23,076 bases of DNA from a phage. The notes under the pieces are model-generated. The model was not told the DNA's origin. It searched no databases and worked only from the letters and a program-made list of their open reading frames with translations. Of this stretch, positions 1 through 19,010 are shown one piece after another; within the stretch, counting starts at the first letter, position 1; each line of letters begins with the position of its first letter. Where the stretch lies: assembly GCA_025289735.1 (NCBI GenBank), contig GCA_025289735.1_4764.2. One strand, given 5' to 3'. The position numbers were made by a program, and so were the translations under genes.

Positions 1-676
1 TATTTGTTTCGGCTTTTAATTGAGATATTTCTTTACACTCTTTAACTACTTTAACAAATAATGCTCTTGCTTTTGTGGCGTCAATAACAAGTAGTTTCTT
101 GTACGCCTTCATTTTAACACTATAAGTTTGCCAAATCAAGTCTTTGGCTACCTTGTCGTGTTCGTCGATTATATTTAGAAAGCTATCTAACAACATAAAC
201 GACTCAAACGATATAATCCGATTTTGCAGTAGTTTAAAGATACCGCTAGTTTCGGTTGCGGGATTGTATGTAATTAGCTCTTTAAGAGTAACCCCTCGTT
301 TCTCTGAGAAGTATACCAGACTTTTAATGTCATCGTCAAATCGTGTTGCTGCATCGGTTATCTTTCCTATGTATTCCATATAAAAGCCGTATGCGTCAAC
401 ATCAGTGATTTCACCTACCCATGCATCGGTATTAGCTACCAGATTGCTTAGGAATAGGAAGTATAATTCTCTTAGATTGTACTTTTCCGCTAATTTCGCG
501 AAATAATACTTATCTCTGCGTTTATTGAATGCGGCATCAGATAACCGCATCCTCCAATTGTATTTTACGCAATCATAACGCCCGTTCATGTGAGCTTTCA
601 TCATGCAATATAACATATACACAGATTTAGCATTAATTCGCATATCTGGATCTGGAGGAAGACGGTTTCTGATCAT
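1..676 (-). CDS. 59: DNA helicase loader gp59 (partial; C-terminal end runs off the window start)
   Basis: Manual minus-strand translation from ATG at 676..674 gives MIRNRLPPDPDMRINAKSVYMLYCMMKAHMNGRYDCVKYNWRMRLSDAAFNKRRDKYYF..., closely matching T4 gp59 as recalled (KSVYKLYLMIKQHMNGKYDVIKYNW..SDAAYQKRRDKYFF). Reading frame is still open at position 1. Absent from the ORF track because it is truncated. Confidence 0.8.
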   Translation of the reverse strand, partial: MIRNRLPPDPDMRINAKSVYMLYCMMKAHMNGRYDCVKYNWRMRLSDAAFNKRRDKYYFAKLAEKYNLRELYFLFLSNLVANTDAWVGEITDVDAYGFYMEYIGKITDAATRFDDDIKSLVYFSEKRGVTLKELITYNPATETSGIFKLLQNRIISFESFMLLDSFLNIIDEHDKVAKDLIWQTYSVKMKAYKKLLVIDATKARALFVKVVKECKEISQLKAETN

Positions 677-685
677 ACATACCCC

Positions 686-955
686 TTAAATATCGAGAGT
701 GTTGGTCGGTTCGTCGATCACTCCCTTCCTGAGTGTTCTATTTACTATACATTCTTGTGTGATCTTGTCAATAATGGACACCGGAATATACTTCTGATAG
801 TGACCATATTCGATAGAGTTTTCCTCTACAAACTGAGTGGTCGCTTCAAGATAAGTCAATCCCTCTTCAACAACCAGTTTTTCGATTGCAAGACCGTTTG
901 CTGTTTTATTCGCGGCTTTTACCGCATGTTCATTAAGCATTGAACACCCGATCAT
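686..955 (-). CDS. 33: late promoter transcription accessory protein gp33
   Basis: 89-aa ORF; segment IEKLVVEEGLTYLEATTQFVEENSI resembles T4 gp33 (IEKMVEEFGMSYLEATTAFLEENSI). Synteny 59-33-dsbA-rnh as in T4. True start may differ; the ORF is shorter at the N-terminus than T4 gp33. Confidence 0.75.
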   Translation of the reverse strand: MIGCSMLNEHAVKAANKTANGLAIEKLVVEEGLTYLEATTQFVEENSIEYGHYQKYIPVSIIDKITQECIVNRTLRKGVIDEPTNTLDI

Positions 956-1208
956 AGAGTTCTACCGCTTCGTCGCGTTCTGCTTCGAAGGTTTCGCGCT
1001 GTTGCTGGTGATACAGTTTAAACAGAATGCCCCACATTTTACCATCTACGCCTAATTCTTCTTTAGCACGCTGTTTGATCTCTTTGATCTTATCGCCATA
1101 TGCTTCTTGAATGGTTTTCTGATCGCTGGCTTCTTTAATCAGTTGTGCCAGGGTATTTCCGTGTACATTTTCATCGAATACTACTTTTTCTTTTTTCTGT
1201 TCAGTCAT
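933..1208 (-). CDS. dsbA: DsbA-like double-stranded DNA binding protein (late transcription enhancer)
   Basis: 91-aa ORF between the gp33-like and rnh-like genes, the position dsbA occupies in T4. Size and charged helical character fit; sequence identity to T4 DsbA not verified residue by residue. Confidence 0.6.
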   Translation of the reverse strand: MTEQKKEKVVFDENVHGNTLAQLIKEASDQKTIQEAYGDKIKEIKQRAKEELGVDGKMWGILFKLYHQQQRETFEAERDEAVELYDRVFNA

Positions 1209-1213
1209 AATAT

Positions 1214-1810
1214 TTAACCCTCTTTCGTCATTAATTGAAAACCACGTTCAGCTTTTGAGATTTCGCTAGGACTTAAATCGTCACCCACATATTCTAGCAT
1301 CATTTCTCGGATAATGTCAAGTGCTTTTTCATCACCTGATTTTAACTCGAACTCAAGTTCATAGTGAGCCTCTCCCATTCTTTCGCCGACTTTGCAATAA
1401 TAGAAAGTGTCTTTGCACATTTCCACTATACCACAACCCATATCTAGAGTCAATGACTTGCGGTATGTCATGACTTGCAGTAAAGGAACGATAAGGTCGG
1501 AGTTTACGCCTAGACTATCAACATAATGATAGAAATCATCCATTGTTGAAAAAGTAATTTCTTCTCGGTTGAAGAGTCCAGATTCACTATCACCTATTTT
1601 GACCATGATCAATGATCTATTAACGTCAAGTCGAGCATAAATTCCTTTTCGACGCAGTGCATGATCTTCTGTATCATAATAAAATTCGTGTTTTAGTGTG
1701 TTAGCATGATCTACTAGATTGTACCCGTCATACATTGCTACCCACAAATCACAGATTGTTTCGACGCCAATTTGTGAGTGTGCATAGTATTTTAATTCAA
1801 GTTCTTTCAT
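1214..1810 (-). CDS. CYTH-domain protein (class IV adenylate cyclase / triphosphatase-like), hypothetical
   Basis: 198 aa. N-terminal ELELK (ExExK-type motif), central FYYDTEDHALRRKGIYARLDVNR (YYDT...R.R pattern) and C-terminal YELEFELK acidic strand resemble the CYTH triphosphate-tunnel fold. Lies between dsbA and rnh, which I recall as adjacent in T4. Confidence 0.5.
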   Translation of the reverse strand: MKELELKYYAHSQIGVETICDLWVAMYDGYNLVDHANTLKHEFYYDTEDHALRRKGIYARLDVNRSLIMVKIGDSESGLFNREEITFSTMDDFYHYVDSLGVNSDLIVPLLQVMTYRKSLTLDMGCGIVEMCKDTFYYCKVGERMGEAHYELEFELKSGDEKALDIIREMMLEYVGDDLSPSEISKAERGFQLMTKEG

Positions 1811-1820
1811 GTGTCAACCC

Positions 1821-2768
1821 TTAGAACTCACCAATTTTCTGCAACATTTTAACTAACGCATTTGTTACAAAATAGTTATAAATTTTACCGCGTGGTGCTG
1901 GTTTAGATTTTTCCCATGCTAACAAAATTTCATATTCGATGTTATCAGGAATAAATTCAAAATCAATAAGTTCGCGGTTTTCGTCAAAGCGTCGTGCTTC
2001 TTCCTCTGTCATCAAAGACTTTGGATCTTCGGCATCGAAAATTTGCTCTAACCATTTGGTTGCAATTGGTTTAGCTCGTTCTCCTTCCAGTCGTGAGATA
2101 ATGAAATCACTACGGCACTTGATCGAAGCTACACCGTCTTTTGCGTCACCCTTAACACATTTTACCATCAGGTCTTTGTAAGGGCTACCATATTTGCATT
2201 TCTTCCACGCTTTCTGTACTGGCGCCCACTGTTTCACGTTTTTGTATTTGTGCAACTGTGTGTAGTCACCATCGCCGGAGTTGATTAGCACCTGACGACC
2301 TTCTACAGAAAACTTTTTAGTTAATACAGCGATTATATCATCCGCTTCAACTTTGTCAACCTTAATAACGTGATAAGGCATGTTCTCTTTAAACTCTTCG
2401 GTGATCTTATTGATCGCAGCAAAGATCATCTCCCAATCACGCGGATCTGCGTCTCGTTTTTCCTTACGGTTGCGTTTATAGTAAGGGGCGATATCACGTC
2501 GCCAGTAACCTTTACTTGAATCAAAGGCAAGTACCGTAATAGGGTATTGCTCTTTGAATTTTGTCATATTATAACGCATGGTGTCAAGGATAAGATGACG
2601 GATCATGCCTTCATTAATAGGATCTTCCGGTTTAAAGGTATGCGAGATAGTAGCAATCATAAGCTGCGACATATCAATCAAATGCACACCTTCCGGTAGT
2701 TTATCTTCTGGATCATCAAAGAAATCATTAAGTGTAGCGGTAGTTTTTGTAAACGGGTTATATGTCAT
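1821..2768 (-). CDS. rnh: RNase H / 5'-3' exonuclease (FEN-1 family)
   Basis: 315 aa; strong similarity to T4 RNase H as recalled (GYWRRD, YYK.NR, MPY, EADD.IAVL.KKFS.EG, DGD.TQLHKY.NVKQW, RSDF..R.EGER, IDF..IPDNI, PRGKIY.YFV). Confidence 0.9.
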   Translation of the reverse strand: MTYNPFTKTTATLNDFFDDPEDKLPEGVHLIDMSQLMIATISHTFKPEDPINEGMIRHLILDTMRYNMTKFKEQYPITVLAFDSSKGYWRRDIAPYYKRNRKEKRDADPRDWEMIFAAINKITEEFKENMPYHVIKVDKVEADDIIAVLTKKFSVEGRQVLINSGDGDYTQLHKYKNVKQWAPVQKAWKKCKYGSPYKDLMVKCVKGDAKDGVASIKCRSDFIISRLEGERAKPIATKWLEQIFDAEDPKSLMTEEEARRFDENRELIDFEFIPDNIEYEILLAWEKSKPAPRGKIYNYFVTNALVKMLQKIGEF

Positions 2769-2770
2769 AA

Positions 2771-2956
2771 TTAAGTTCTCTCCACTCTCACAACAACATA
2801 TTCGCCAAACGAGCTAGATACTTCACGATCATACCCGTACTTCTCCATAACTCGCAGAATTGCATTGTTTAGTTCTGCGCGAAAATAATTATAATCCTTA
2901 TCAGGTATTCTGTCAACTATCCATTTTGCACCGTCTGACAAATCAACTTTAACCAT
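2771..2956 (-). CDS. hypothetical small protein (61 aa)
   Basis: ORF immediately upstream of rnh on the minus strand, with AAGAGGA Shine-Dalgarno about 9 nt before its ATG. No recognised homolog. Confidence 0.5.
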   Translation of the reverse strand: MVKVDLSDGAKWIVDRIPDKDYNYFRAELNNAILRVMEKYGYDREVSSSFGEYVVVRVERT

Positions 2957-2994
2957 AATATATCATCCTCTTTTGTTTCTATCAAGCCTCATTT

Positions 2995-3002
2995 TATAAA
3001 TA
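2995..3002 (+). promoter_or_regulatory. T4-type late promoter (TATAAATA) for gene 34
   Basis: Exact TATAAATA about 28 nt upstream of the gp34 ATG, followed by AAGGAG RBS. Matches the gp55/gp33-dependent late promoter consensus. Confidence 0.65.
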
Positions 3003-3030
3003 TGAACATACTATAAAAGGAGACCCAATA

Positions 3031-6000
3031 ATGGCAGATTTTTCTCAACATTTCAAGGCCACATTTGGCTTTGACGCTGGTAATGAAAAGGTCGTCAATG
3101 TAGCATTGGCTGATAAGAATGTCAACACCGATGCGGTCAACGTTGAATTTTTCAATTACCATAATGGTATTACTCAGTATGACACAACTCGCGGTTATGA
3201 TCAATACGGCACTACAATCTATCAAAACCGTCCGTATTATGCAAAAGAAGATATCGCAAAACCAGCAGGTGACTTTGACCCGACTAAATGGCAAGCACTG
3301 CGCACGGACCCACGTTGGGATTATGTTGCAGCAACTTCCGGCGATACTCCTTTAAAGTCCGGTGACTATATCGCAGCGGACTGTCAGTTTGCAAACTTGA
3401 CATTCTCAATGCCTACTAATCCTGTAGAGGGCGACACTATAACAGTAAAAGATATCGGTGGCAAGTGCGGTGTTAATGAGTTATCGTTCCTTTCGGTTGG
3501 TCATGAGTTCTATCATAATGGTGTGGTAAACAACCGCAAATGGTACTGTACTACCCCTTATGCAATGAACTACTTCATTTTTGTTCGCAATCGCTGGCAC
3601 GTTTACCAGACGGGAACGGAGCCACGCGGGGTATATGCACAACCATCTATCGACCCGATCCAGATGCAAAACGGTGATCAGGTATTTCGTCGTAGTTCGT
3701 TGGGTAATATTACCTTAGTGCTTCCTAAGTTTGCCAACAATGGCGACATGATCCAGACTACAGACCTTGACGGATTAACCGCAACCAACCACGTTACGGT
3801 TAAAGTTCATGAGCACGCAGAAGAACAATCAATTGGCACGTCCGGTCTAAAAGAGATTATCGGTAAGCGTAGCGGTCATGGTATATTCATCTTTGACAAG
3901 ACGGAAAACTTATGGCGTTTGTGGGATGGTGATCAGTCTGTTCGTCTTAAACCGATCATCGATGACACTCGCTTATCCCCTAATAGCTATGTTGCAGTAT
4001 TTGGTGATCGTGATGTTACCTTGACTTTACCGACCAATGTCGAGTCGGGTGATCGCATTCAAGTTTCTATGCAGTATATGCACGGAAACCAGACTTGCCG
4101 AATCATTACCTCAGAAGAGGATACAAAAATCCTTATGCAGAAAAACATGGTTCAGTTTCCTAAGCGTAGCGAGTACCCATTCAATGGGACCGATACATGG
4201 ACGGGAGTGTCTGAATTGTCTTTCAACGCTGCAAATGATTATGTACCTTATCTGGAGTTCTCTTATTCAGAAGGTGATGATGGTAAGAAATACTGGCTGG
4301 TGGCACATGCTCACCCGATTGTAGAACGAGTAGATCCGACTCGTAAAGATCGTGTTGGTGTTATTGCGCTTGCTACCCAAGATGAAACAAACAAAAACCA
4401 TGAAGATAATCCTAGCGACGAAGTTGCGGTGACTCCAAAGGTTCTGGCTAACAAAACAGCCAACGAAACTCGACGCGGTATTGCTCGCATTGCAACTCAA
4501 GCGGAAACGCATCAAGATACTGGTTCCAGCTTCCTGGATGATGTTATCGTTACACCTAAAAAGTTAAATGACTGTGTTGCTACCGAAGACCGTCGTGGTG
4601 TGATGGAAATTGCAACTCAACATGAAACCAACGAAGGTTTAGACGATACTCGCGCAATCACTCCTAAGAAGTTAGAAGAGCGTCGAGCGTCAGAGGATCT
4701 TGCTGGTATCGCTGAAATTGTTCAGGTAGGCGGTAGTGCTGCCGCTCGACGTGGCGAAGCTGGTACAGGGATCTATAACATCAACGACCATGCTAAAATC
4801 GTTACTCCGCAAAACATCAACGAAGTTAAGGCGACCGAAACTTCCCGTGGTGTTGGGTATCTGGCAACTGACGCGGAAGTGCAAGGGGCTACAGAATCAA
4901 CCCCGCAAGATGCTTTACTAATCACGACTCGCACGCTAACGAAACGTACTGCTACCGAATCGCGTACTGGTATCGCTGAAATTGCAACTCAGGAAGAAAC
5001 AAACTTAGGTCAAAGTGATAACCATATCATCACGCCTAAAAAGCTGCATACTCGCCGCGCAACGGAAACTTTACATGGTTTAGCAGAAATTGCAACTCAA
5101 GAAGAGTTTGACGCAGGTCGTGACGATGCTCGCATTTCTACCCCATTGAAGATTAAAACCTTCTTTGAGAATGCACAGCGTTTGAAAGTAGACCCGACTC
5201 AGGGGCTTAACCTTACGGGTGACTTGTGGCAAGGTATCATGATCAGCGGTCTTGATGCAACCGAAGACACAAAAGGTGTCGCTAAAGTTGCTACTACTCA
5301 GCTTACGGATGTTGGTCAAGATGATACTACAATCATCACTCCTAAAAAGCTGCAAGGCAAAAAGGCCACCGAAGGTAAAGAAGGTATTATCCGAGTTGGT
5401 ACTCAAGCCGAAACCGTGGCTGGTGCACTGGCTAATGTAGCAATTTCTCCGAAGAACTTCAAATATGTTGTTCAGACAGAGGATACATGGAAAGCAACCG
5501 AAGCGCGTCGTGGTTTCTTGAAAGTTGCTACTCAGGAAAACTGTTTTGTTGGTGATAATCTGCAAGGTTCTACTCAAGAACTAGGAAACTACCAGCATGA
5601 CGGAATTGCTGTTACCCCGAAAGGATTAAACTACGCACTTGCTAATTTCTTACCTAAGATGGCAACCGCTCAGAATAGTTTGAAATTGGGTAACGTAGAG
5701 GCCGCTAAATGGGCGCGTAGAGACATTGACCAGACCATAGAGAGCAATTACACGTTTAATAAAAAAGTTAACGTGAAGGGCGATTTAGAGTGCTTAAAAT
5801 CAGGTTCCTTTGAAACTCTGTCTGTGACTAAGAACTCGACCGATGTTCCGAGTAATGGTCATCTGGTGTTGGGTGAGCGTGGAGTTGACGGTCACACCGG
5901 AATTACTCTGCATGGCACAACCGCATCGGAAGGCATGAAAAACTCTTGGTCTATTATCGTTGGTGGTACGGGAACAGCGCAAGTTGTTGATAGTGATGCT

Positions 6001-6804: not shown

Positions 6805-7944
6805 ATGACACAAGAGATAGAATTACGCAACACTGGAGTTAGGTTTGCGCATTTCGACGAAGACTCTGCGACATTTACAAGCATTTCAGAAAACAACTCT
6901 GTGATGTATAAGCTGGAAGTTCGCGGATCTAATGCGGATTCTACCAAACCAGCAAGGATTAGATTTAATGGAGTGGAGATCGTTGGCACTGGCTATGAAA
7001 ATGGCCTAAATTTTAAAGTTCTTACTCCAACTGGACAACTACACGAAGAAAAGGTATTCTATGGTCGCGGTGCTGTATTGGCAATGCGTGATTATCTTTC
7101 TTTGCTGAAAGGTGACTATATCATTGCGATGGCAACGCATGGAGAATTGTTTGCAGATCCGATAAGTGATGTTGTATTTTCTAAGATGGGATCTGTATCA
7201 TTCCCGAATCACATTTTGTTACAGCAAATGCCTCGTGTATCCTATGCAGCAATTTATTCTACTAAAATGGGTAAAATTGTGTGCGAAGGGATGCAAGCAA
7301 CGCACGGGGAAGGTCAAGATTCGTCTATACAGATCGAGAAAGTTTATGATACTATAGACGATCTTGCAATAACAGGAACACCACAACGATTTTTAGATTA
7401 TCCGGTTGAATATGTTAGCGAAGATGCCGAACATTTCGAGCTAATACAATGGCCTCATGATGAGATCAGCGCACCACTTGAGGATTTTAACATAAAGTCA
7501 GGTGACAAACTATCAATATCCTTTGAATTGTTCCGTGATAGTGCCGCAGCCGCAGCCAACGTAACAGCGCGTTTCTATCACAACTACTTCACTGATGGAC
7601 AATATCAAACTGGCGTTCGTTATAATGCCAGCCAGAAAGATCAATGGGAAAAGTTTGAAACCGTCTATACCGTACCGGAAGGAGTTGATAGTGTTACCAC
7701 TGGTTGTATCAGATATCCAACCAACTCCAACGAAGGTATTGTTAAAATTAGAAACATACTAATAACGCCGATCAGTGGAGTCGTCAAAACTACTGGTCCT
7801 ACTTCATTTGGTGTTAATGGTGTTAGAACAACTCATATTCAGGATAACGGTGATTTTACTAACCCTGTAATGAGTCTTCTTAAACTGCCTAGAGATAATA
7901 AACACATCACATCCAACAACTTTAAAGAGTTCGATGTTGATTAA
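6805..7944 (+). CDS. 35: probable long tail fiber hinge protein gp35
   Basis: 379 aa (T4 gp35 about 372 aa), immediately downstream of gp34 with no separate promoter. Assignment by synteny and size; sequence similarity not confirmed from memory. Confidence 0.5.
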   Translation: MTQEIELRNTGVRFAHFDEDSATFTSISENNSVMYKLEVRGSNADSTKPARIRFNGVEIVGTGYENGLNFKVLTPTGQLHEEKVFYGRGAVLAMRDYLSLLKGDYIIAMATHGELFADPISDVVFSKMGSVSFPNHILLQQMPRVSYAAIYSTKMGKIVCEGMQATHGEGQDSSIQIEKVYDTIDDLAITGTPQRFLDYPVEYVSEDAEHFELIQWPHDEISAPLEDFNIKSGDKLSISFELFRDSAAAAANVTARFYHNYFTDGQYQTGVRYNASQKDQWEKFETVYTVPEGVDSVTTGCIRYPTNSNEGIVKIRNILITPISGVVKTTGPTSFGVNGVRTTHIQDNGDFTNPVMSLLKLPRDNKHITSNNFKEFDVD

Positions 7945-7955
7945 CATTTTTAACA

Positions 7956-7986
7956 AGCCGATCCTCGTGGTCGGCTTTATTTTTAT
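7956..7986 (+). terminator. rho-independent terminator after gene 35
   Basis: AGCCGATCCTCGTGGTCGGCT hairpin followed by TTTATTTTTAT. Confidence 0.7.
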
Positions 7987-9414: not shown

Positions 9415-9681
9415 GTGAATATGTCCAATCAACATGAACAAATGATTAATGTCCTGAAAGTACGTCTGTTTGACACTCAAGAAAAGGCCGCATTCTTAGA
9501 AGGCCAACTGAAAGATCGTGAGCGTGTATTGATGGAACTGGTACGCATTCTGGGTATTCAGCCAGACGAAAACGGGACTGTTTCCCTTGATGCTATCGTC
9601 GAAGAAGTGAAAGCACTTCTCCCTAAAGACGAAGCCGCAGAAGCCGCAGAAGAGGAAGTAGAACTGATCACGGAGGCTTGA
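9415..9681 (+). CDS. 57A: gp57A-like tail fiber assembly chaperone (small acidic coiled-coil protein)
   Basis: 88 aa, acidic, heptad-like, between gene 1 and the 57B-like gene; size and neighbourhood match T4 57A. Sequence-level match not verified. Confidence 0.5.
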   Translation: MNMSNQHEQMINVLKVRLFDTQEKAAFLEGQLKDRERVLMELVRILGIQPDENGTVSLDAIVEEVKALLPKDEAAEAAEEEVELITEA

Positions 9682-9683
9682 TT

Positions 9684-10148
9684 ATGACCCCGTTTAGAGA
9701 ATCCGTTAAAGGTACATATGCGGCGGTTAAATTCACTGAGGATACACTAGACCGCATTGAAAAATTGCAGGAGTTCTACGATCTTCCTAATGCCGTTCCT
9801 CGTGATAAACTGCATAGCACTATCTTATATTCTCGTGTCTATGTTCCGTTTATCCCAGAAGAAGGGGAGAAGTTCTTAGGCTCTCTGTGTCATCTGAAAG
9901 TGTTTGAAACACAATCCGGTACTAATGCGCTTGTGCTGGCATTTGAAAGCGACTACATGCAATTCAGACACGATATCGGCACTGCTTTAGGTGCGACGTG
10001 GGATTATCCTGAATATGTACCGCATATCACGCTTTCTTATGATGTTGGTGCGCGTAAATTTGGCACTGACCTAGAGTTCGATTTAGAGATTGTCCGATCT
10101 CATGAGTATGTCGAAGATCTAGACCTGGAGTGGACGACCAAACTGTAA
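9684..10148 (+). CDS. acb1: 2H phosphoesterase, 57B/Acb1-like (anti-CBASS cyclic-oligonucleotide phosphodiesterase candidate)
   Basis: 154 aa from ATG at 9684 (the track start 9678 is TTG; GGAGG RBS 7 nt upstream of 9684). Two H-x-T-x motifs (HSTILY, HITLSY) typical of 2H phosphoesterases; T4 57B/Acb1 is about 152 aa and adjacent to 57A and gene 1. Confidence 0.65.
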   Translation: MTPFRESVKGTYAAVKFTEDTLDRIEKLQEFYDLPNAVPRDKLHSTILYSRVYVPFIPEEGEKFLGSLCHLKVFETQSGTNALVLAFESDYMQFRHDIGTALGATWDYPEYVPHITLSYDVGARKFGTDLEFDLEIVRSHEYVEDLDLEWTTKL

Positions 10149-10155
10149 TTCTATA

Positions 10156-10187
10156 CCCCGAAAAATTTTTCGGGGTTTTTTGTTTTT
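10156..10187 (+). terminator. rho-independent terminator
   Basis: CCCCGAAAAATTTTTCGGGG palindrome followed by TTTTTTGTTTTT. Confidence 0.8.
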
Positions 10188-10192
10188 AGGTG

Positions 10193-10221
10193 TTGACAAC
10201 CATAAACGACTATAGCATAAT
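10193..10221 (+). promoter_or_regulatory. early sigma70-type promoter module copy 1 (TTGACA-17-CATAAT)
   Basis: TTGACA at 10193-10198, CATAAT at 10216-10221, then leader ATCGAAACGAAACAC and AGGAG RBS before the ATG at 10260. Confidence 0.7.
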
Positions 10222-10259
10222 GCACATATCGAAACGAAACACACTTAGGAGAATCAAAA

Positions 10260-10634
10260 ATGATGATGTTTAAAGATAAATTCGAATGTCACTACACCCG
10301 TAACTTTGACTTAGTATCCCGCTACTACATTCATAAAGAAACTGGCACGCAAGTAGTTCTTGAATCTCACAGCGAAGTAGGATTCGATTCAACAAAAGTA
10401 GCAATTAGTGCTCGCTTCTGGGATAACGGCAAATTTGCTTATATCGCTTGGAACGACGACGAAAATGTAATTACAGTAGCTTTCGGTGATGACTACTACA
10501 CTAAAAAGACTTTTGATAGCAAGCCATCAAATGAATATCTGAAAGCGTATGTTCAGCACATGTTCCAACGTGTTCTGACCGGAATGGAAATCAATGTCAT
10601 GAAAGACATTGTAGACGAAGTAAAATATTCTTAA
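10260..10634 (+). CDS. hypothetical protein (124 aa)
   Basis: ORF with promoter and RBS directly upstream; no recognised homolog. Confidence 0.7.
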   Translation: MMMFKDKFECHYTRNFDLVSRYYIHKETGTQVVLESHSEVGFDSTKVAISARFWDNGKFAYIAWNDDENVITVAFGDDYYTKKTFDSKPSNEYLKAYVQHMFQRVLTGMEINVMKDIVDEVKYS

Positions 10635-10640
10635 AAATAG

Positions 10641-10669
10641 TTGACAACATGAAACGGGGGTAGTAAGAT
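10641..10669 (+). promoter_or_regulatory. early promoter module copy 2 (TTGACA-17-TAAGAT) with inverted repeat over the -10
   Basis: TTGACA 10641-10646; GGGGGTA (10656-10662) / TACCCCC (10669-10675) inverted repeat flanks the -10; leader CAAACGAAAGGAG. Near-identical to the module at 19448. Confidence 0.65.
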
Positions 10670-10700
10670 ACCCCCACAAACAAACGAAAGGAGAATCAAA

Positions 10701-10859
10701 ATGAAATTTATCGGTAAAACTTTTATGTTCGTAGCTGGTACTCTGTTTACTGCAACTCTGTTAGCTGGTGGCTTAGATATCTTTACTGCCTTTGAAACTT
10801 TCGGGTATACTGTAGCATCGGGTGCTCTCTTCGGATTGGGTTTAGCGATTAGCAAATAA
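10701..10859 (+). CDS. small hydrophobic membrane peptide (52 aa)
   Basis: ATG 7 nt after AGGAG, immediately behind promoter copy 2; translation MKFIGKTFMFVAGTLFTATLLAGGLDIFTAFETFGYTVASGALFGLGLAISK. Below the 60-aa cutoff of the ORF track. Confidence 0.6.
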   Translation: MKFIGKTFMFVAGTLFTATLLAGGLDIFTAFETFGYTVASGALFGLGLAISK

Positions 10860-10868
10860 GGTGATAAT

Positions 10869-11072
10869 ATGGAATTTGATATGGTTAAAGCAAAATTTAT
10901 GGGTAAGGATAAGAGCGGTAAAACATTTGTTATTAATAGAACATTGTTTCGCTCTGACCTTAAGTGGGTAACACAACAATTTGCGGAAGTCAACGAGGCA
11001 GTTGTGACATGCTTCGTTGATGATAAAAAAGTTTTTGAAATTGATCGTCGTGGGGTGTCTAATGATCACTAA
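10869..11072 (+). CDS. hypothetical protein (67 aa)
   Basis: ORF with GGTGA RBS; first gene of a translationally coupled chain. Confidence 0.55.
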   Translation: MEFDMVKAKFMGKDKSGKTFVINRTLFRSDLKWVTQQFAEVNEAVVTCFVDDKKVFEIDRRGVSNDH

Positions 11073-11259
11073 ACTGTTTAGTAATACTTTGTTTCTGATT
11101 GCATTTGTTTTCTTTCTGTGTCTGATGATCGGTGTTGTTACAGTTGGTAGCTATTCCGGTATTACCTTAGATGATTTTTGCAAACTTGTTTTGATCTCGT
11201 TTATACCTAGTATTCTGCTCGCTTTATGTGGTGCTTTTAAATGGCTTTGTACGCTATGA
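11062..11259 (+). CDS. small membrane protein (65 aa)
   Basis: ATG at 11062 overlaps the upstream stop; hydrophobic, two predicted TM helices. The track start 11017 is probably too far upstream. Confidence 0.55.
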   Translation: MITKLFSNTLFLIAFVFFLCLMIGVVTVGSYSGITLDDFCKLVLISFIPSILLALCGAFKWLCTL

Positions 11260-11981: not shown

Positions 11982-12132
11982 TAGTGAACTAAAGACAGCG
12001 CGGTTAGAATGATTTGGACGTCACCTAGCCGCATTTATTACAGCGTATGTGGGCTATCCGGTACGCTAAAGCATTCACTTGCTAGGCCGCTAGCAGGTTG
12101 GAGACAAGGAAGATTCGCTACCTTCCCTATAA

Positions 12133-12156
12133 GCCACTCTTCGGAGTGGCTTTTTT
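12133..12156 (+). terminator. rho-independent terminator (UUCG tetraloop)
   Basis: GCCACTC-TTCG-GAGTGGC followed by TTTTTT. Confidence 0.8.
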
Positions 12157-12959: not shown

Positions 12960-13148
12960 ATGGAAGACCAAATTGAACAATTACGCGAATCCGCTAAAGA
13001 GCATGGTATGAGCGAAGGATTTGTTGAATGGTTTATCTCTAAAAAGGTTGATTCCTGCGGGTGCTTTAACTTCCTTACTATGTCCATTATGTGGGAAGGT
13101 TGGAAAGGTGCTGTAGAAACTGCCTTAAAAATTTTGAAAAAAGACTAA
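12960..13148 (+). CDS. hypothetical protein (62 aa)
   Basis: ORF with GAGGTGA RBS. Confidence 0.5.
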   Translation: MEDQIEQLRESAKEHGMSEGFVEWFISKKVDSCGCFNFLTMSIMWEGWKGAVETALKILKKD

Positions 13149-13156
13149 AAAAGTTG

Positions 13157-13185
13157 TTGACACGCGATAGGGTGTATAGCATAAT
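13157..13185 (+). promoter_or_regulatory. early promoter module copy 5 (TTGACA-17-CATAAT) inside an 11-bp perfect inverted repeat
   Basis: TTGACA 13157-13162, CATAAT 13180-13185; GATAGGGTGTA (13166-13176) and TACACCCTATC (13186-13196) form a perfect inverted repeat around the -10; leader CGAAACGAAACACGAA and AAGGAG RBS. Confidence 0.7.
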
Positions 13186-13228
13186 ACACCCTATCGAAAC
13201 GAAACACGAACTACTAAGGAGTATCAAA

Positions 13229-13555
13229 ATGAAACCAGTATCTGTTAAAGTTATCTTCTCTGAATCTTCTGTATTCGCTAAAGCAAACGAAGTATTCCAC
13301 TTCGAAGACTTCGAGCGTAAAGCACAGGACGCGGCAGCAAAAGCCTATGAAAGCGAATATGACAAAACTCAAATCGAGGTTACTTTCGAAAACGGCACTA
13401 CTTACGCTTGCCGCCTTGACCTGGGTGATCGTCTGTCTGGCTTCCGTCACCATGTAGAGAAGACAATCGCTTTCTCTAAAACCGAAAAAGGAAAACACTA
13501 CTTTTCTGTTTTCGGTACTAAAAATCTGGATTTCTTGAAAACTGTTTCTTTCTAA
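13229..13555 (+). CDS. hypothetical protein (108 aa)
   Basis: ATG at 13229 sits 8 nt after AAGGAG, behind promoter copy 5. The track entry 13091..13555 has an over-extended N-terminus that would cross the promoter. Confidence 0.65.
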   Translation: MKPVSVKVIFSESSVFAKANEVFHFEDFERKAQDAAAKAYESEYDKTQIEVTFENGTTYACRLDLGDRLSGFRHHVEKTIAFSKTEKGKHYFSVFGTKNLDFLKTVSF

Positions 13556-15362: not shown

Positions 15363-15554
15363 ATGAAATTTGCATTTGGTTTTACCGTGATGTTGATTAT
15401 TGCTCTGAGTATGTGTACCGGAATGCTTGTATTTGGTCTTGCAAACGGATTTAGCATTTATAATAATCAGTGGGTTGATTGGGGAATGGTTGTCGTTAAT
15501 GCGATCCTGATTGGTGCTAATACAAGAAATCTATGCAGGATCGCCGGAATCTAA
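15363..15554 (+). CDS. small membrane protein (63 aa)
   Basis: Hydrophobic ORF directly upstream of the endolysin gene. Confidence 0.5.
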   Translation: MKFAFGFTVMLIIALSMCTGMLVFGLANGFSIYNNQWVDWGMVVVNAILIGANTRNLCRIAGI

Positions 15555-15582
15555 ATATTATCACTCACAAAGGGGGTGAATA

Positions 15583-15972
15583 ATGTTTAAATTATCTCAA
15601 AGAAGCAAAGATCGGCTTGTTGGTGTACATCCTGATCTGGTAAAAGTCGTTCATCGTGCGTTAGAACTGACTCCGGTCGATTTTGGTATTACGGAAGGTG
15701 TGCGTAGTCTAGAAACGCAAAAGAAATATGTTGCGGAAGGTAAATCTAAGACTATGAAATCTCGTCATCTTCACGGTTTCGCGGTTGACGTTGTAGCGTA
15801 TCCGAAAGATAAGGATACATGGAACATGAAATACTACCGCATGATCGCGGATGCATTTAAACAAGCTGGTCGAGAATTGGGTGTTCCTGTTATCTGCGGT
15901 GTTGATTGGGTTACTTTTAAAGACGGACCGCATATGGAACTCGATAAAAAGGTATATCCAGACCCGGTATAA
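15583..15972 (+). CDS. endolysin, L-alanyl-D-glutamate peptidase (peptidase M15, T5-type)
   Basis: 129 aa; similar to T5 endolysin as recalled (VHPDL.KVV.RALELTPVDFGI.EGVR; SRHLHGFAVDV with H-x6-D zinc site; DGPHMEL). Occupies the position of T4 gene e but belongs to a different enzyme family. Confidence 0.8.
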   Translation: MFKLSQRSKDRLVGVHPDLVKVVHRALELTPVDFGITEGVRSLETQKKYVAEGKSKTMKSRHLHGFAVDVVAYPKDKDTWNMKYYRMIADAFKQAGRELGVPVICGVDWVTFKDGPHMELDKKVYPDPV

Positions 15973-15981
15973 CTAAAATCA

Positions 15982-16006
15982 AGCCAGCTTAATCGCTGGC
16001 TTTGTG
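15982..16006 (+). terminator. probable terminator hairpin after the endolysin gene
   Basis: AGCCAGC-TTAAT-CGCTGGCT followed by TTGTG; weak T-run. Confidence 0.45.
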
Positions 16007-16017
16007 AGGATTATAAA

Positions 16018-16593
16018 ATGGCTTTTAAATATTGGGATGAATCCCTACAAAACGAGATAAAACTTAGATATGCTCATATAGAGGGTATCTTATATTATAG
16101 AGTCGATAGTAAAGCTATCAAAGGACGACCATTAGGGAGTAGATATAAACACGGCGATTTAGTTAAAGTCAGAACAAATAAAGATGGTCATCTTAGATTT
16201 TGGCATAGTAGAGATGACGGTCTTCCTAGAGTTCATCTATTCGTGCATAGGGTTGTTTGGTTTCTAGAACATGGGACGCAAGTTAGATTAATTGATCATA
16301 TTGACGGTAATCCTGCGAATAACAATCCTCCAAATCTTAGGGAGGCAACCGACGCGCAAAATCAACATAATAGAAAGAAGAAGTCTAAAAAGTTTTCTAG
16401 TGTGTATAAGGGTGTTAGTAAGTCTAACAGGAAGGATTTGCGTAAGAAATGGAGAGCTAGTATAATGGTCAACCTAAAAAGACATGTTCTTGGACAATAT
16501 GACACAGAAATCGAAGCTGCAATCGCTTATGATAATGCAGCTAGGAAATTTTATGGAGAATATGCTCTATTGAATTTCCCAGATCCAAAATAA
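16018..16593 (+). CDS. HNH homing endonuclease with C-terminal AP2 DNA-binding domain
   Basis: HNH core HRVVWFLEHGTQVRLIDHIDGNPANNNPPNLREATDAQNQHN; AP2-like YKGVS...WRASI...GQYDTEIEAAIAYDNAARKFYG. AGA/AGG/ATA-rich codon usage contrasts with neighbouring genes. Confidence 0.8.
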   Translation: MAFKYWDESLQNEIKLRYAHIEGILYYRVDSKAIKGRPLGSRYKHGDLVKVRTNKDGHLRFWHSRDDGLPRVHLFVHRVVWFLEHGTQVRLIDHIDGNPANNNPPNLREATDAQNQHNRKKKSKKFSSVYKGVSKSNRKDLRKKWRASIMVNLKRHVLGQYDTEIEAAIAYDNAARKFYGEYALLNFPDPK

Positions 16594-16655
16594 AATATTA
16601 ACCATCAACGGGGAGACAATCTAAGGATCTCTCCCCGTTCACTGGAGACTTTACC

Positions 16656-17147
16656 ATGAATATTGACATTGATTTAGAATTAGAAAGTAAAGATTTGATT
16701 TATGCTGCGTGTGTATCTGCCGTAAATGGCATCATAGAACGCCGTAAGCGACGCAATTTTGCTGATGACCTAGATTCCATTGTCTCAATCAATTTAGGCC
16801 GTCAGACAGGGCATACAGACGCTACAATCAAGTTATATGACCATTATACGCGAAAGGGCTATAGTGTCTTTATCGTTTCAACGACGCGGGAACATGCCAA
16901 AACGATCCGAGATCGCGGTCGCGGTGAAAATGTAAATATTTCAAATGTAGATTGTACGTCTATCCGAACTTTCCTGAATCCGATCACATGGCGAGGTCGT
17001 AGTCTTGACAAAACAATTTTTATCCTAGATACTACCATGCGCGGATTTACTGACAGCGTATTGCAGTTTTTAGAAGTAAATCGACTTAGTGTTGGGATGG
17101 GTAATGTAGAAGACCAACCTATTTTCATTGGCTTAGGTATTAACTAA
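16656..17147 (+). CDS. hypothetical protein (163 aa)
   Basis: ORF with GGAG RBS; no recognised homolog. Confidence 0.6.
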   Translation: MNIDIDLELESKDLIYAACVSAVNGIIERRKRRNFADDLDSIVSINLGRQTGHTDATIKLYDHYTRKGYSVFIVSTTREHAKTIRDRGRGENVNISNVDCTSIRTFLNPITWRGRSLDKTIFILDTTMRGFTDSVLQFLEVNRLSVGMGNVEDQPIFIGLGIN

Positions 17148-17272
17148 TGAAAAATAAAGATAGCGTAGCTCGTCGATTTCGTGCTACAATTAAAAAGAAT
17201 CGTAAAATCCAACCTGATAAACTCTATGGTGTTTTGGTTGGTAAAATTAATGACGAACGTCCTGATCTATAA
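17147..17272 (+). CDS. possible small basic protein (41 aa)
   Basis: ATG overlaps the upstream stop (TAATG); translation MKNKDSVARRFRATIKKNRKIQPDKLYGVLVGKINDERPDL. Not in the ORF track (below 60 aa). Confidence 0.35.
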   Translation: MKNKDSVARRFRATIKKNRKIQPDKLYGVLVGKINDERPDL

Positions 17273-17282
17273 GAGGTGAATT

Positions 17283-17699
17283 ATGGAATTTAAAGCAATT
17301 CAAATCATGAAAGGTGAGCATAAAGGTACTATTATTGGTGGACACTTCGCGCCTATGATTCTGGTATCCGAACCGAAAGCACTGATCGGCGCTAAAGTAA
17401 TTGTTAGTAAAACTTTCGCAGAAGACCATGTGATCACCGCAGAAGACGTCGATTCGCTGGCACTGCACACAACTAGCTTCCGTCCGGTGATTGTAGATAA
17501 TGGTGCTCCTGTTGTCGAAGGAGGTCAGCACGCGAATATCAATGTGATGAGTCGCGATCTTCTTCTTGATGCGGTTGCTAATCCTGATAAGTATCCGCAA
17601 CTAACCATTCGCGTTAGCGGATATGCCGTAAGATTCAATAGTCTGACTCCAGACCAACAACGTGATGTTATTTCGCGCACCTTTACGGAAGCAATGTAA
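17283..17699 (+). CDS. grcA: autonomous glycyl radical cofactor (GrcA/YfiD-like)
   Basis: 138 aa; C-terminal [60 protein letters not shown] is near-identical to E. coli GrcA and contains the RVSGY glycyl-radical motif. AAGAGGTGA RBS. Confidence 0.85.
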
Positions 17700-17705
17700 A
17701 TTTTT

Positions 17706-17738
17706 AAGCCAATCCGAAAGGGTTGGCTTTATTTTTAT
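17706..17738 (+). terminator. rho-independent terminator after the grcA-like gene
   Basis: AGCCAATCC-GAAA-GGGTTGGCT followed by TTATTTTTAT. Confidence 0.75.
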
Positions 17739-17746
17739 GAGGTGAT

Positions 17747-18277
17747 ATGATGATTAAAAGATATTGTGATGACCATCCGGTCGAAGAGTGGAAAGTGATT
17801 GAGGATCTTTATCCGTTAACTCATTTTGAGATTAGTTCTCATGGTAGGGTTAGAAACTCCATAACAGGAAAATACTTGTCTATTGTAGACACGAAAGATT
17901 ATACTAAAGTTTCTTTTAAACATCGCCCCAGCAAAACACATAGAACGTTAAACATGCATAGAATGATGGCGGTTGCGTTTATTCCGAATCCAAACAACTA
18001 CCGTGTAGTTAACCATAAGGACGGAAACAAACGAAACTATGATCTTTATAATCTTGAATGGACTACAGACACACGAAATCTTGTTCATGCAAAGGAAGAA
18101 GGATTAAACAAAAATTGGGGCGAGAACCACGGAAACGCAAAACTAACAGATGAACAGGTGAAAGAGATTTTAGATTCTCCGCATATGAAGGGCGTAGAGC
18201 TTGCAAGAAAATATAATGTTTCACCGTCTGCTATTTGTCAGATTCGAAAAGGCGTTCGACGTAACGTAAAATACTAA
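17747..18277 (+). CDS. HNH homing endonuclease (NUMOD4-like N-terminus, HNH_3 core, C-terminal HTH)
   Basis: HFEISSHGRVRN (NUMOD4-like); HRMMAVAFIPNP..VNHKDGNKRNYDLYNLEW (HNH); NAKLTDEQVKEI...ARKYNVSPSAICQIRKG (DNA-binding). Confidence 0.8.
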   Translation: MMIKRYCDDHPVEEWKVIEDLYPLTHFEISSHGRVRNSITGKYLSIVDTKDYTKVSFKHRPSKTHRTLNMHRMMAVAFIPNPNNYRVVNHKDGNKRNYDLYNLEWTTDTRNLVHAKEEGLNKNWGENHGNAKLTDEQVKEILDSPHMKGVELARKYNVSPSAICQIRKGVRRNVKY

Positions 18278-18290
18278 TGAGGGTTTAATT

Positions 18291-18989
18291 ATGCATACAA
18301 TGGTTAAAATGGTCTTCGGATCTCACTTGTACGGCCTTGATACTGAAAATTCAGATAAAGATTATCGTGGTATCTTTGTTCCGACTGCTAAAGAAATTAT
18401 CTTAGGATCGATGAAAGAACACTATGACCAAAGCACTAGCGGTCAAGGTATCAAGAACACCAAAGACGATATTGATGTTAATATGTTCAGTCTAAAACGG
18501 TTTATCAATCTGGCATGTAAAGGCGATATCGGCGCTATTGACATGGTGCACGCGCCTAGTAACATGTTGATTGAATCCTCCAGAGAATGGGAATACATCC
18601 GAACACATCGCGATAAATTCTATCATGTTGGGATGTGGGGTTTGTCTGGCTATCTCAAAAAGCAGGTAGCCAAATCTGAAAAGTATTTCAGTAACTGGAA
18701 AGATCTTTCTCATGCTCTGCGTGTTGGTTATCAGCTACTTGAAATCTATCAGACAGGTGATCTACAATTCCCGCTCGCGCGACGTTCTTCTATTTTAGCG
18801 TGTAAGTTAGGAGAAAGAACCTTTGATAATGTGCGGGAAGAATTGAAAGATCTCTACGAGCGTGTTAAACTCGCGCGTGAAGAGGCAAAGAAAAACGGTA
18901 TGCCGGAAGAACCAGATGTTGACTTTTGGAAAGATTTATTAGAATATATTCATCTGACCGTTGTTCTGGAACACTATACCCGTGGTTAG
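18291..18989 (+). CDS. Pol-beta superfamily nucleotidyltransferase (RlaP/YcgL-like), function unknown
   Basis: 232 aa; N-terminal VFGSHLYGLDTENSDKDYRGIF fits the hG[GS]-x(9-13)-DxD nucleotidyltransferase signature. Confidence 0.6.
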   Translation: MHTMVKMVFGSHLYGLDTENSDKDYRGIFVPTAKEIILGSMKEHYDQSTSGQGIKNTKDDIDVNMFSLKRFINLACKGDIGAIDMVHAPSNMLIESSREWEYIRTHRDKFYHVGMWGLSGYLKKQVAKSEKYFSNWKDLSHALRVGYQLLEIYQTGDLQFPLARRSSILACKLGERTFDNVREELKDLYERVKLAREEAKKNGMPEEPDVDFWKDLLEYIHLTVVLEHYTRG

Positions 18990-19010
18990 TTAATATAGGA
19001 GATTAAGAAA

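Follow-up and report, generated by a model that had tools for sequence, protein, structure and literature searches.

Gene content of the endolysin–nrdC.11 interval

The stretch analyzed here, in the following called the window (23,076 nt, one strand, contig GCA_025289735.1_4764.2 of NCBI GenBank assembly GCA_025289735.1), bears at positions 16,018 to 18,277 a gene related to that of GrcA, the autonomous glycyl radical cofactor of Escherichia coli, with a free-standing homing endonuclease gene (HEG) of the HNH type on either side, HEG1 upstream and HEG2 downstream. As developed below, the two HEGs probably belong to two independent modules of intronless homing placed around a conserved block of phage genes, each module including a diverged 3' end of the gene upstream of it. 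At megablast sensitivity, window positions 15500-19000 match 59 records, all of them from Krischvirus (RB49-like T4-type Straboviridae), and the database nucleotide search gives 96.3% nucleotide identity to Escherichia phage JSE; the window can be assigned to an RB49/JSE-like T4-type coliphage of this genus. From the endolysin gene onward, the following features were located.

15583-15972, + strand: endolysin of the M15 L-alanyl-D-glutamate peptidase type (Peptidase_M15_4, E = 4.8e-8; annotated as endolysin in relatives)
15889-15972, + strand: endolysin 3' end, HEG1-linked allele, last 27 codons, ICGVDWVTFKDGPHMELDKKVYPDPV and stop (from comparison with relatives)
15981-16002, + strand: stem-loop AAGCCAGC-TTAATC-GCTGGCTT, followed by the HEG1 Shine-Dalgarno sequence GAGGA (missing in HEG1-less genomes)
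16018-16593, + strand: HEG1, free-standing HNH plus AP2 homing endonuclease gene, 191 amino acids (aa) (from domain matches)
16579-16593, + strand: last 15 nt of the HEG1 open reading frame (ORF), CCAGATCCAAAATAA, a remnant of the resident endolysin gene (from junction comparison)
16610-16636, + strand: GGGGAGA...TCTCCCC stem-loop 5' of vs.8 (common to all genomes)
16656-17147, + strand: vs.8 homologue (annotated as vs.8 in JSE and RB49; phrog_1488)
17147-17272, + strand: conserved 41-aa ORF (phrog_13848, E = 1e-30; annotated in relatives)
17283-17699, + strand: vs.6, GrcA/YfiD-like glycyl-radical cofactor, 138 aa (Gly_radical match; homology to T4 vs.6)
17481-17699, + strand: vs.6 3' half, glycyl-radical domain, allele W (from allele comparison)
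17706-17729, + strand: terminator-like hairpin 3' of vs.6 (common to all genomes)
17747-18277, + strand: HEG2, free-standing I-HmuI-like NUMOD4 plus HNH endonuclease gene with a C-terminal helix-turn-helix-like part, 176 aa (from domain matches)
18291-18989, + strand: nrdC.11-like nucleotidyltransferase (RlaP, E = 3e-14; phrog_388)

The seven genes from endolysin to nrdC.11 are thus all encoded on the + strand, with the endolysin gene 5' of HEG1 and nrdC.11 3' of the HEG2 site, and JSE possesses the same seven in the same order; synteny of the locus is annotated in JSE, RB49, G2248, JK32, and others. HEG1, vs.6, and HEG2 are intact ORFs at the coordinates first assigned to them. Flanking of the GrcA-like gene on both sides, as proposed in the first-pass annotation, was found, but only HEG2 directly adjoins it, while vs.8 and the 41-aa ORF lie between it and HEG1. 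All HEG-less relatives compared possess these two genes and vs.6 in unchanged order, and the order of vs.8 and vs.6 is kept even in T4, there with vs.7 between them.

HEG1 represents a fusion of an HNH nuclease with an AP2 DNA-binding domain, as established by profile and structure-database matches. The HNH_3 match reaches 40.1 bits (Pfam cutoff 24.8), and the AP2 match, at 25.3 bits, stays under its Pfam cutoff of 33.3, the same C-terminal stretch matching solved plant AP2/ERF domains (WRI1, E = 3e-10); the protein also matches phrog_99 (E = 4e-44). HEG2 possesses the HNH motif and N-terminal NUMOD4-type module (23.8 bits, Pfam cutoff 23.4) typical of I-HmuI, with which it aligns at E = 1.4e-8 (1U3E) including HR...HKDGNK.N...NL.W.T of the HNH motif; it also matches phrog_59 (E = 6e-36). 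From their domain content, both are predicted to be active endonucleases. The bias of HEG1 toward AGA/AGG codons was likewise substantiated, as these make up 15 of its 17 arginine codons, compared to 47 of 296 (16%) for 43 other window ORFs taken together (Fisher p = 6e-10), and its GC content at third codon positions (GC3, 0.266) is the lowest in the window. While HEG1 thus appears foreign, HEG2 is intermediate (6 of 13 arginine codons, p = 0.013), and GrcA and vs.8 show codon usage typical for the window.

Elsewhere in the window, high AGA/AGG proportions are also found at 6805-7944 (7 of 16 arginine codons) and 13091-13555 (6 of 11; LPD25 domain), and these ORFs may be further imported genes. 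Other genes consistent with Krischvirus encode RNase H, a CYTH protein, dNMP kinase, Acb1, an SLT-domain vs.1 homologue, and thymidine kinase; among these, the anti-CBASS phosphodiesterase Acb1 shows a strong match at 9678-10148 (E = 1.5e-51). A 1246-aa ORF without Pfam match is consistent with this genus as well.

The glycyl-radical protein encoded by vs.6

With its 138 aa, the vs.6 product is a small stand-alone protein that essentially consists of a C-terminal Gly_radical domain (PF01228, E = 4.7e-15, residues 78-119), a match noted for vs.6 of T4-like phages by Nolan et al. (2006). Its best solved relative is E. coli GrcA (6OWR, E = 6e-29), followed by PflB. The RVSGYAV motif is present, with Gly113 (codon 17619-17621) as the radical glycine, and within the 21-residue core around this glycine all 21 positions are identical to the host protein. 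Near-identity of the radical-bearing C-terminus to the host, as first suggested, therefore holds for the core but not for the complete 62-residue radical domain, where the window allele shares 47 residues (76%) with GrcA and 46 with PflB (residues 698-759); the corresponding values versus host GrcA are 55/62 for the RB49 allele and 59/62 for T4 vs.6. At the DNA level, the closest E. coli match is only about 70% identical over 185 nt and belongs to pflB. Hence, the protein likeness to the host reflects constraint, and a recent capture of grcA from the host was rejected; of the two origins initially considered, host-derived or tightly constrained, the latter is the better reading. The vs.6 gene is an ancestral T4-type auxiliary gene under constraint.

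The expected counterpart in T4 is its vs.6 gene (120 aa, 52% identity to the window protein; gene order vs.8-vs.7-vs.6), the product of which, as deduced from size and domain, is presumably Y06I. Biochemistry has validated the latter and E. coli YfiD as spare parts for pyruvate formate-lyase (PFL) cleaved by oxygen, and they are the only two for which radical installation by PFL activase and rescue of cleaved PFL have been demonstrated (PMC8683613). Going by homology to both, host PFL activase would install the radical on Gly113 of the window protein, which would then replace the oxygen-cleaved C-terminus of the host enzyme. Like Y06I and GrcA, it is a small stand-alone protein ending in a PFL-type glycyl-radical domain, with RVSGYAV and the surrounding 21 residues identical, and T4 vs.6 is in addition syntenic with vs.8. 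Unlike these, it is longer (138 aa versus 120 in T4 and 127 in E. coli), has a Krischvirus-specific N-terminal half, and occurs in at least four radical-domain alleles within one genus.

Phage GrcA is already known, with about 1,580 phage records of homologues, and the genes of the present locus are already annotated in JSE and its relatives as "Homing endonuclease," "vs.6," or "autonomous glycyl radical cofactor." When IMG/VR was queried with the GrcA protein, only one Krischvirus contig was returned. In Tequatrovirus ZCEC14, the vs.6/GrcA homologue is labelled "HNH homing endonuclease" in GenBank, which is a mis-annotation (extracted locus 1998-2360); the phage was therefore discarded as a case of a HEG next to GrcA in another genus. 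In T5, the GrcA-like gene T5.056 is situated in the tRNA region between hegD and hegE (F-TflV; extracted locus 1-4267), but at about 1.4-1.5 kb from each, and was accordingly rejected as a case of direct neighbourhood.

Polymorphism of the endonuclease genes and of the upstream gene ends

For detailed comparison, the endolysin-to-nrdC.11 interval of 18 genomes was used, i.e., the window plus a non-random set of 17 relatives picked by category, whereas counts across the whole collection rely on identity thresholds of ≥95% for HEG1, ≥80% for HEG2, and ≥95% for HEG3. The last designates an unrelated 197-aa HNH gene that is the alternative occupant of the HEG2 position (site 2, with the HEG1 position being site 1). 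Among the 59 Krischvirus records, HEG1 is present in 14, HEG2 in 5, and HEG3 in 9, and the whole phage collection holds no others at these thresholds; conversely, 45 of the 59 are without HEG1 and in 45 site 2 is empty. The next relatives of the three genes show <60% identity (46% at most among the matches listed) and belong to other loci or phages. In the 18 genomes, the distribution is as follows.

Neither HEG: RB49, kvi, G2494, KFS-EC, one IMG/VR contig
HEG1 only: G2248, KMB43, G5211, TB34
HEG2 only: 011D4
HEG1 and HEG2: window, JSE, Whisky, phiS
HEG1 and HEG3: JK32, FL04, pEJ01
HEG3 only: LF73P4

Both HEGs thus show presence/absence polymorphism at fixed sites among close relatives, as characteristic of mobile elements. 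Of the two findings that would have contradicted the first-pass annotation, lack of such polymorphism and uniform codon usage, neither was obtained. All four combinations of HEG1 and site-2 occupancy occur (7 genomes with both, 4 with HEG1 only, 2 with site 2 only, and 5 with neither), and in this category-picked sample the two are unassociated (Fisher p = 0.33). The intact HEG1 copies compared differ from the window copy by 0-3 residues. In pEJ01, a 1-nt deletion at insert offset 418 splits the ORF into pieces of 148 and 42 aa (extracted locus 2019-2593), which marks this HEG1 as a decaying copy.

At site 1, presence of HEG1 is strictly linked to a private end of the endolysin gene. All 11 carriers compared encode an endolysin ending in ICGVDWVTFKDGPHMELDKKVYPDPV, as against 0 of the 7 HEG1-less genomes, where the protein invariably ends in EWGGDW(T/V)SFKDG(P/V)H(L/F)QLPHSKY(P/Q)DPK (allele EWGGDWTSFKDGPHLQLPHSKYPDPK and stop). 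Among the 59 records, 14 have the variant endolysin end plus hairpin and 14 have HEG1, the other 45 matching the shared upstream part only. The variant 81 nt are about 38% diverged, with a synonymous divergence (dS) of 1.15, compared to 2% and a dS of 0.09 in the preceding 306 nt, and when endolysin nt 307-390 are split by HEG1 state, divergence amounts to 0.375 between groups versus 0.026 within them (permutation, p = 0.0002). The right boundary is equally sharp. As the 15 nt with which the HEG1 ORF ends, CCAGATCCAAAATAA, are the very ones that close the HEG-less endolysin gene and provide HEG1 with its last four codons (PDPK) plus stop, HEG1 is located inside the original endolysin 3' end and has brought a substitute end with it. 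Directly after CCAGATCCAAAATAA, identity with HEG-less genomes resumes, and the stem-loop at 16610-16636 marks the right homology boundary of the insertion. From direct reading, the Zn-ligand motif DGPH is retained in both endolysin versions.

At the left edge of the diverged tract, the HEG1-less endolysin gene possesses GGGGTGGGG, which is lost in carriers. The AP2 domain of the Trichodesmium HNH-AP2 protein binds poly(dG)/poly(dC), and the G-run in the HEG1-less gene is a candidate recognition element for the AP2 domain of HEG1. Aligned at this edge, HEG1-less endolysin genes read GAATGGGGTGGGGATTGG (RB49 extract ~1890-1915, corresponding to window 15889-15912) and those of carriers ATCTGCGGTGTTGATTGG. 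The HEG1-linked endolysin end may be viewed as a cleavage-resistant version of the HEG1 target region. On the coding strand of site 1, no promoter-like match was found. T4 late promoters as drivers of the HEGs were also rejected, as TATAAATA matches only at 2995 and 11973, with none near the locus.

At site 2, the corresponding tract is the 3' half of vs.6. The first ~200 nt of this gene are nearly invariant (2% in nt 1-198), while for the remaining ~220 nt at least four classes of alleles can be distinguished.

Allele W: window, JSE, Whisky, 011D4; site 2 occupied by HEG2
Allele W: KFS-EC; site 2 empty
Allele R, ending IARTFTESL as in E. coli GrcA: RB49 and others; site 2 empty
Allele P: phiS; site 2 occupied by a HEG2 variant
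Allele J, with a sub-variant in FL04 and G37-3: exactly the 9 HEG3 records; site 2 occupied by HEG3

The five HEG2 carriers compared, i.e., the window and four public genomes, all have ...TFTEAM alleles. Divergence among the alleles is 24-41% at the nucleotide level, with saturated dS (>1.2) and a nonsynonymous divergence (dN) of 0.13-0.32, and in pairwise comparison only 39-51 of 62 residues are identical, about as few as with host GrcA or PflB. Splitting vs.6 nt 199-417 by the site-2 occupant gives 0.287 between versus 0.104 within groups (permutation, p = 0.0002). The right-hand return to homology falls exactly on the ribosome-binding site of nrdC.11 in the case of HEG2 and 5 nt before it in the case of HEG3. 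The pattern suggests that the vs.6 3' half is the co-converted, cleavage-resistant tract of a HEG2 module.

Beyond these two tracts, endolysin nt 307-390 and vs.6 nt 199-417, no part of the interval is sharply partitioned by HEG state. Variation in the vs.8 region, in vs.6 nt 1-198, and in nrdC.11 is about 2%, and it is unlinked to HEG state for vs.8 (permutation, p = 0.60 and 0.44) and nrdC.11 (p = 0.56); vs.6 nt 1-198, which adjoins the variable half, shows a weak signal (p = 0.03). Since dS of the linked segments is saturated (>1.1), compared with 0.07-0.09 in the neighbouring stretches, these segments have been imported and not mutated in place. Near its start, vs.8 itself exists in two forms, distinguished by a 6-nt indel plus substitutions in codons 4-8 (window 16665-16680) and independent of either HEG; the first form is found in the window, G2248, KFS-EC, KMB43, G2494, pEJ01, and LF73P4, and the second in JSE, RB49, and others.

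The spacer of site 2 and HEG2 itself vary as well. The 3' arm of the hairpin at 17706-17729 overlaps a weak sigma-70-like -35 element (TTGGCT, 17-nt spacer, TATGAT; match 9/12), and the HEG2 Shine-Dalgarno sequence GAGGTGA follows 3' of the hairpin. In phiS, the whole empty-site spacer is kept 5' of HEG2 (extracted locus 3695-3790 versus window 17700-17760), whereas the spacer of window and JSE is 33 nt shorter, which fits a deletion between two TATGAT repeats; this deletion recruits an upstream ATG and the GAGGTGA Shine-Dalgarno sequence that is common to HEG3 carriers. The window HEG2 is a distinct allele with 81% aa identity to JSE and 91% to phiS. Along the DNA, it resembles JSE up to ~17800 and, at the protein level, phiS in codons 18-72, and its final 80 nt match JSE without any difference. 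Purifying selection acts on the HNH and C-terminal parts, with dN/dS (omega) of 0.07-0.11, while for codons 18-72, which align to the DNA-binding sheet of I-HmuI (in the window especially 17800-17960), comparison of the JSE type with the phiS/window type gives a dN of 0.52 and an omega of 0.5-0.8.

T4 has a free-standing HNH endonuclease gene, mobD, directly 5' of nrdC.11 (extracted locus 9436-11209), just where HEG2 and HEG3 are found here, and HEGs of different genera may repeatedly have landed at this 5' junction. That HEG2 or HEG3 is homologous to MobD was considered and rejected, as no sequence similarity was detectable when sought.

Probable homing modules, alternative explanations, and significance

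Presence/absence polymorphism, independent assortment of the two sites, and private alleles of the upstream genes fit intronless homing with co-conversion, and we regard it as probable that two independent modules of this kind flank the conserved block of vs.8, the 41-aa ORF, and vs.6. Free-standing HEGs of T-even phages cut at a distance, inside the neighbouring gene, and repair copies the stretch from the cut to the HEG, resulting in co-conversion and marker exclusion (PMC2988022). Applied to the present locus, each mobile unit would combine the endonuclease ORF with two elements 5' of it: a stem-loop plus ribosome-binding site and, further upstream, a diverged and presumably cleavage-resistant 3' end of the preceding gene. 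Accordingly, module 1 would comprise the endolysin nt 307-390 variant, its hairpin, and the HNH-AP2 gene HEG1, and module 2 the radical-domain half of vs.6 (allele W), the hairpin, and the I-HmuI-like HEG2. During co-infection, the endonuclease would cut or nick the allele lacking the HEG, within or close to the 3' end of the gene upstream, and the break would be resected and repaired from the HEG-carrying genome, whereby the HEG is copied and the stretch between cut site and insertion site is necessarily co-converted. As a result, GrcA radical domain and endolysin C-terminus would be repeatedly replaced by imported alleles, with the linked diverged alleles serving as immunity and the endolysin and vs.6 3' ends of HEG-less phages being the targets.

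Several observations weigh against this explanation. Although the private upstream alleles strictly linked to each HEG fit the altered sequence that immunity would demand near the insertion, KFS-EC has allele W at an empty site 2, with a crossover between the vs.6 stop codon and the hairpin loop (extracted locus 2662-3162). HEG2 is also missing in G2248 and kvi, where alleles W and R have recombined near vs.6 nt 280. Allele and HEG are therefore separable by ordinary recombination, and allele W may be older than HEG2. Moreover, the identical left boundaries in all HEG1 carriers equally fit a single ancestral insertion that spread through ordinary recombination, and the 18 genomes were picked by category. 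In the phage collection, no donor lineage was found for the endolysin 3' allele or the vs.6 J allele, identity outside HEG carriers reaching at most ~74-85%. The HNH_3 match of HEG2 (24.3 bits) is marginally under the Pfam cutoff of 24.8, and nuclease activity, cut-site positions, homing, and GrcA biochemistry are all deduced from sequence.

The main rival is passive modular shuffling, i.e., homologous recombination at intergenic stem-loop/promoter elements (PeSLs) and conserved coding stretches, by which the HEGs would be moved as passive, possibly inactive cargo. The PeSL cassette (Arbiol et al., 2010) consists of a sigma-70 consensus promoter, a stem-loop, and a Shine-Dalgarno/ATG, with breakpoints within, and PeSL-mediated insertion and deletion has been shown experimentally in RB49/phi1 (PMC2839356). 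In line with shuffling, the locus belongs to a hyperplastic small-ORF region, each junction has a stem-loop and a Shine-Dalgarno sequence, the stem-loop at 16610-16636 being of the type described for PeSL elements in RB49/phi1, and right breakpoints are intergenic; the crossover of KFS-EC next to the hairpin and the weak -35/-10 elements overlapping the hairpin of site 2 would fit as well. AAGCC...GGCTT hairpins are enriched (4 found versus 0.19 expected), and on the + strand they are located at 7955-7977, 12131-12152, 15981-16002, and 17706-17729; they appear to be a recurring terminator/stem-loop type of the window phage and are possibly PeSL-related. However, site 1 shows no promoter-like match on the coding strand, and the left boundaries are in coding sequence (endolysin nt ~307 and vs.6 nt ~200-250), not intergenic. 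In addition, the only genes seen at the two sites are three different nuclease genes, HEG2 evolves under purifying selection (omega ~0.1), and a private upstream allele per HEG is what target-site immunity predicts and shuffling does not require. Passive shuffling is consequently considered unlikely.

Far less probable is the joint mobilization of HEG1, vs.8, the 41-aa ORF, GrcA, and HEG2 by both endonucleases as one cassette, as had been supposed in the first-pass annotation. HEGs on both sides of a block, a changing occupant at the cognate position (HEG2 versus HEG3), and a gene-fragment remnant beside a HEG (HEG1) are all listed as features of HEG islands (PMC10055350), and the locus resembles in these respects the islands of Barth, Dunham & Seed (2023), in which HEGs flank a small block. 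Unlike in these, its interior is neither co-inherited with the HEGs nor conserved across dissimilar phages. The same block order is found without any HEG, partly even in T4, HEG1 assorts independently of the site-2 HEGs, the vs.8 region and the vs.6 5' half vary without linkage to either HEG (p = 0.44-0.60 for vs.8), and at megablast sensitivity nothing similar to the locus was found outside Krischvirus. Flanking direct or inverted repeats around 16018-18277 beyond chance-level matches of 12-31 nt are also missing, which equally led to rejection of a transposon-like cassette with terminal repeats. The cassette claim is accordingly abandoned.

Domestication of the nucleases, which would then be retained chiefly because they serve the phage, e.g., by exclusion of competitor markers or by amplification or protection of neighbour genes, is suggested by the I-HmuI-type architecture, found in a class linked to competition between related phages, by recent papers that tie phage HEGs to interference competition and anti-defence gene amplification, and by the purifying selection on HEG2, but most relatives lack HEGs at either site, one HEG1 copy is decaying, and the sequence does not distinguish benefit from selfish drive, making this highly improbable as the principal explanation.

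Taking the homing modules as the preferred explanation, the locus can be compared with known systems. Like SegF, SegG, MobE, and Hef/SegH, the HEGs are promoter-less or hairpin-preceded intergenic ORFs in the same orientation as their neighbours, polymorphic among relatives, with co-conversion tracts in the adjacent gene and HEG replacement at one locus (PMC2988022). Unlike the free-standing HEGs of T-even phages, HEG1, HEG2, and HEG3 have their linked diverged tract strictly on the upstream side, with sequence-predicted targets, and from T4 MobD the site-2 genes differ by lacking detectable similarity despite the shared place 5' of nrdC.11. HEG2 aligns with I-HmuI, the HNH endonuclease of the SPO1 intron (1U3E), over the N-terminal DNA-binding sheet and the HNH part and is of similar length (176 versus 174 aa), but it is free-standing and not intron-encoded. 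HNH-AP2 endonucleases (Magnani et al., 2004), including HEGs of RB49, are already in the literature, and HEG1 shows the same architecture and about 44% identity to the RB49 paralogue RB49ORF040c elsewhere in that genome; it differs from the latter by its site 3' of the endolysin gene and by an ORF ending in the 15-nt endolysin remnant. In a limited literature search, no description of HEG-linked allele replacement at this locus was found. The locus is a clean example of a known phenomenon, not a new kind of system, with the twist that the radical domain of an auxiliary metabolic gene hitch-hikes.

Somewhat more speculatively, HEG2 and HEG3 might recognize the glycyl-radical-domain DNA of vs.6, and HEG1 the GGGGTGGGG region, so that competing HEG lineages drive replacement of the catalytic half, with HEG2 codons 18-72 (omega 0.5-0.8) tracking the vs.6 alleles in an arms race. 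We consider this possible but doubtful. If true, the HEGs could act across genera or on the host chromosome, because the motif DNA is common to GrcA genes of T4-, T5-, and Klebsiella-type phages and to host grcA and pflB.

The locus represents a natural experiment, in which, between genomes otherwise 95-97% identical, the functional halves of the GrcA and endolysin genes (radical domain and C-terminus, respectively) have been exchanged for versions of ancient divergence exactly at the HEG sites. It provides testable predictions of the target regions of three uncharacterized HNH endonucleases, together with phages that can be assigned as donor (JSE-type), recipient (RB49), and immune without HEG (KFS-EC), with KFS-EC, G2248, and kvi as natural controls for the HEG2 target. 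For annotation and for comparison of phages in therapy, caution is advised, as GrcA and endolysin "variants" of Krischvirus would be hitch-hikers of mobile elements, not adaptive changes in host range.

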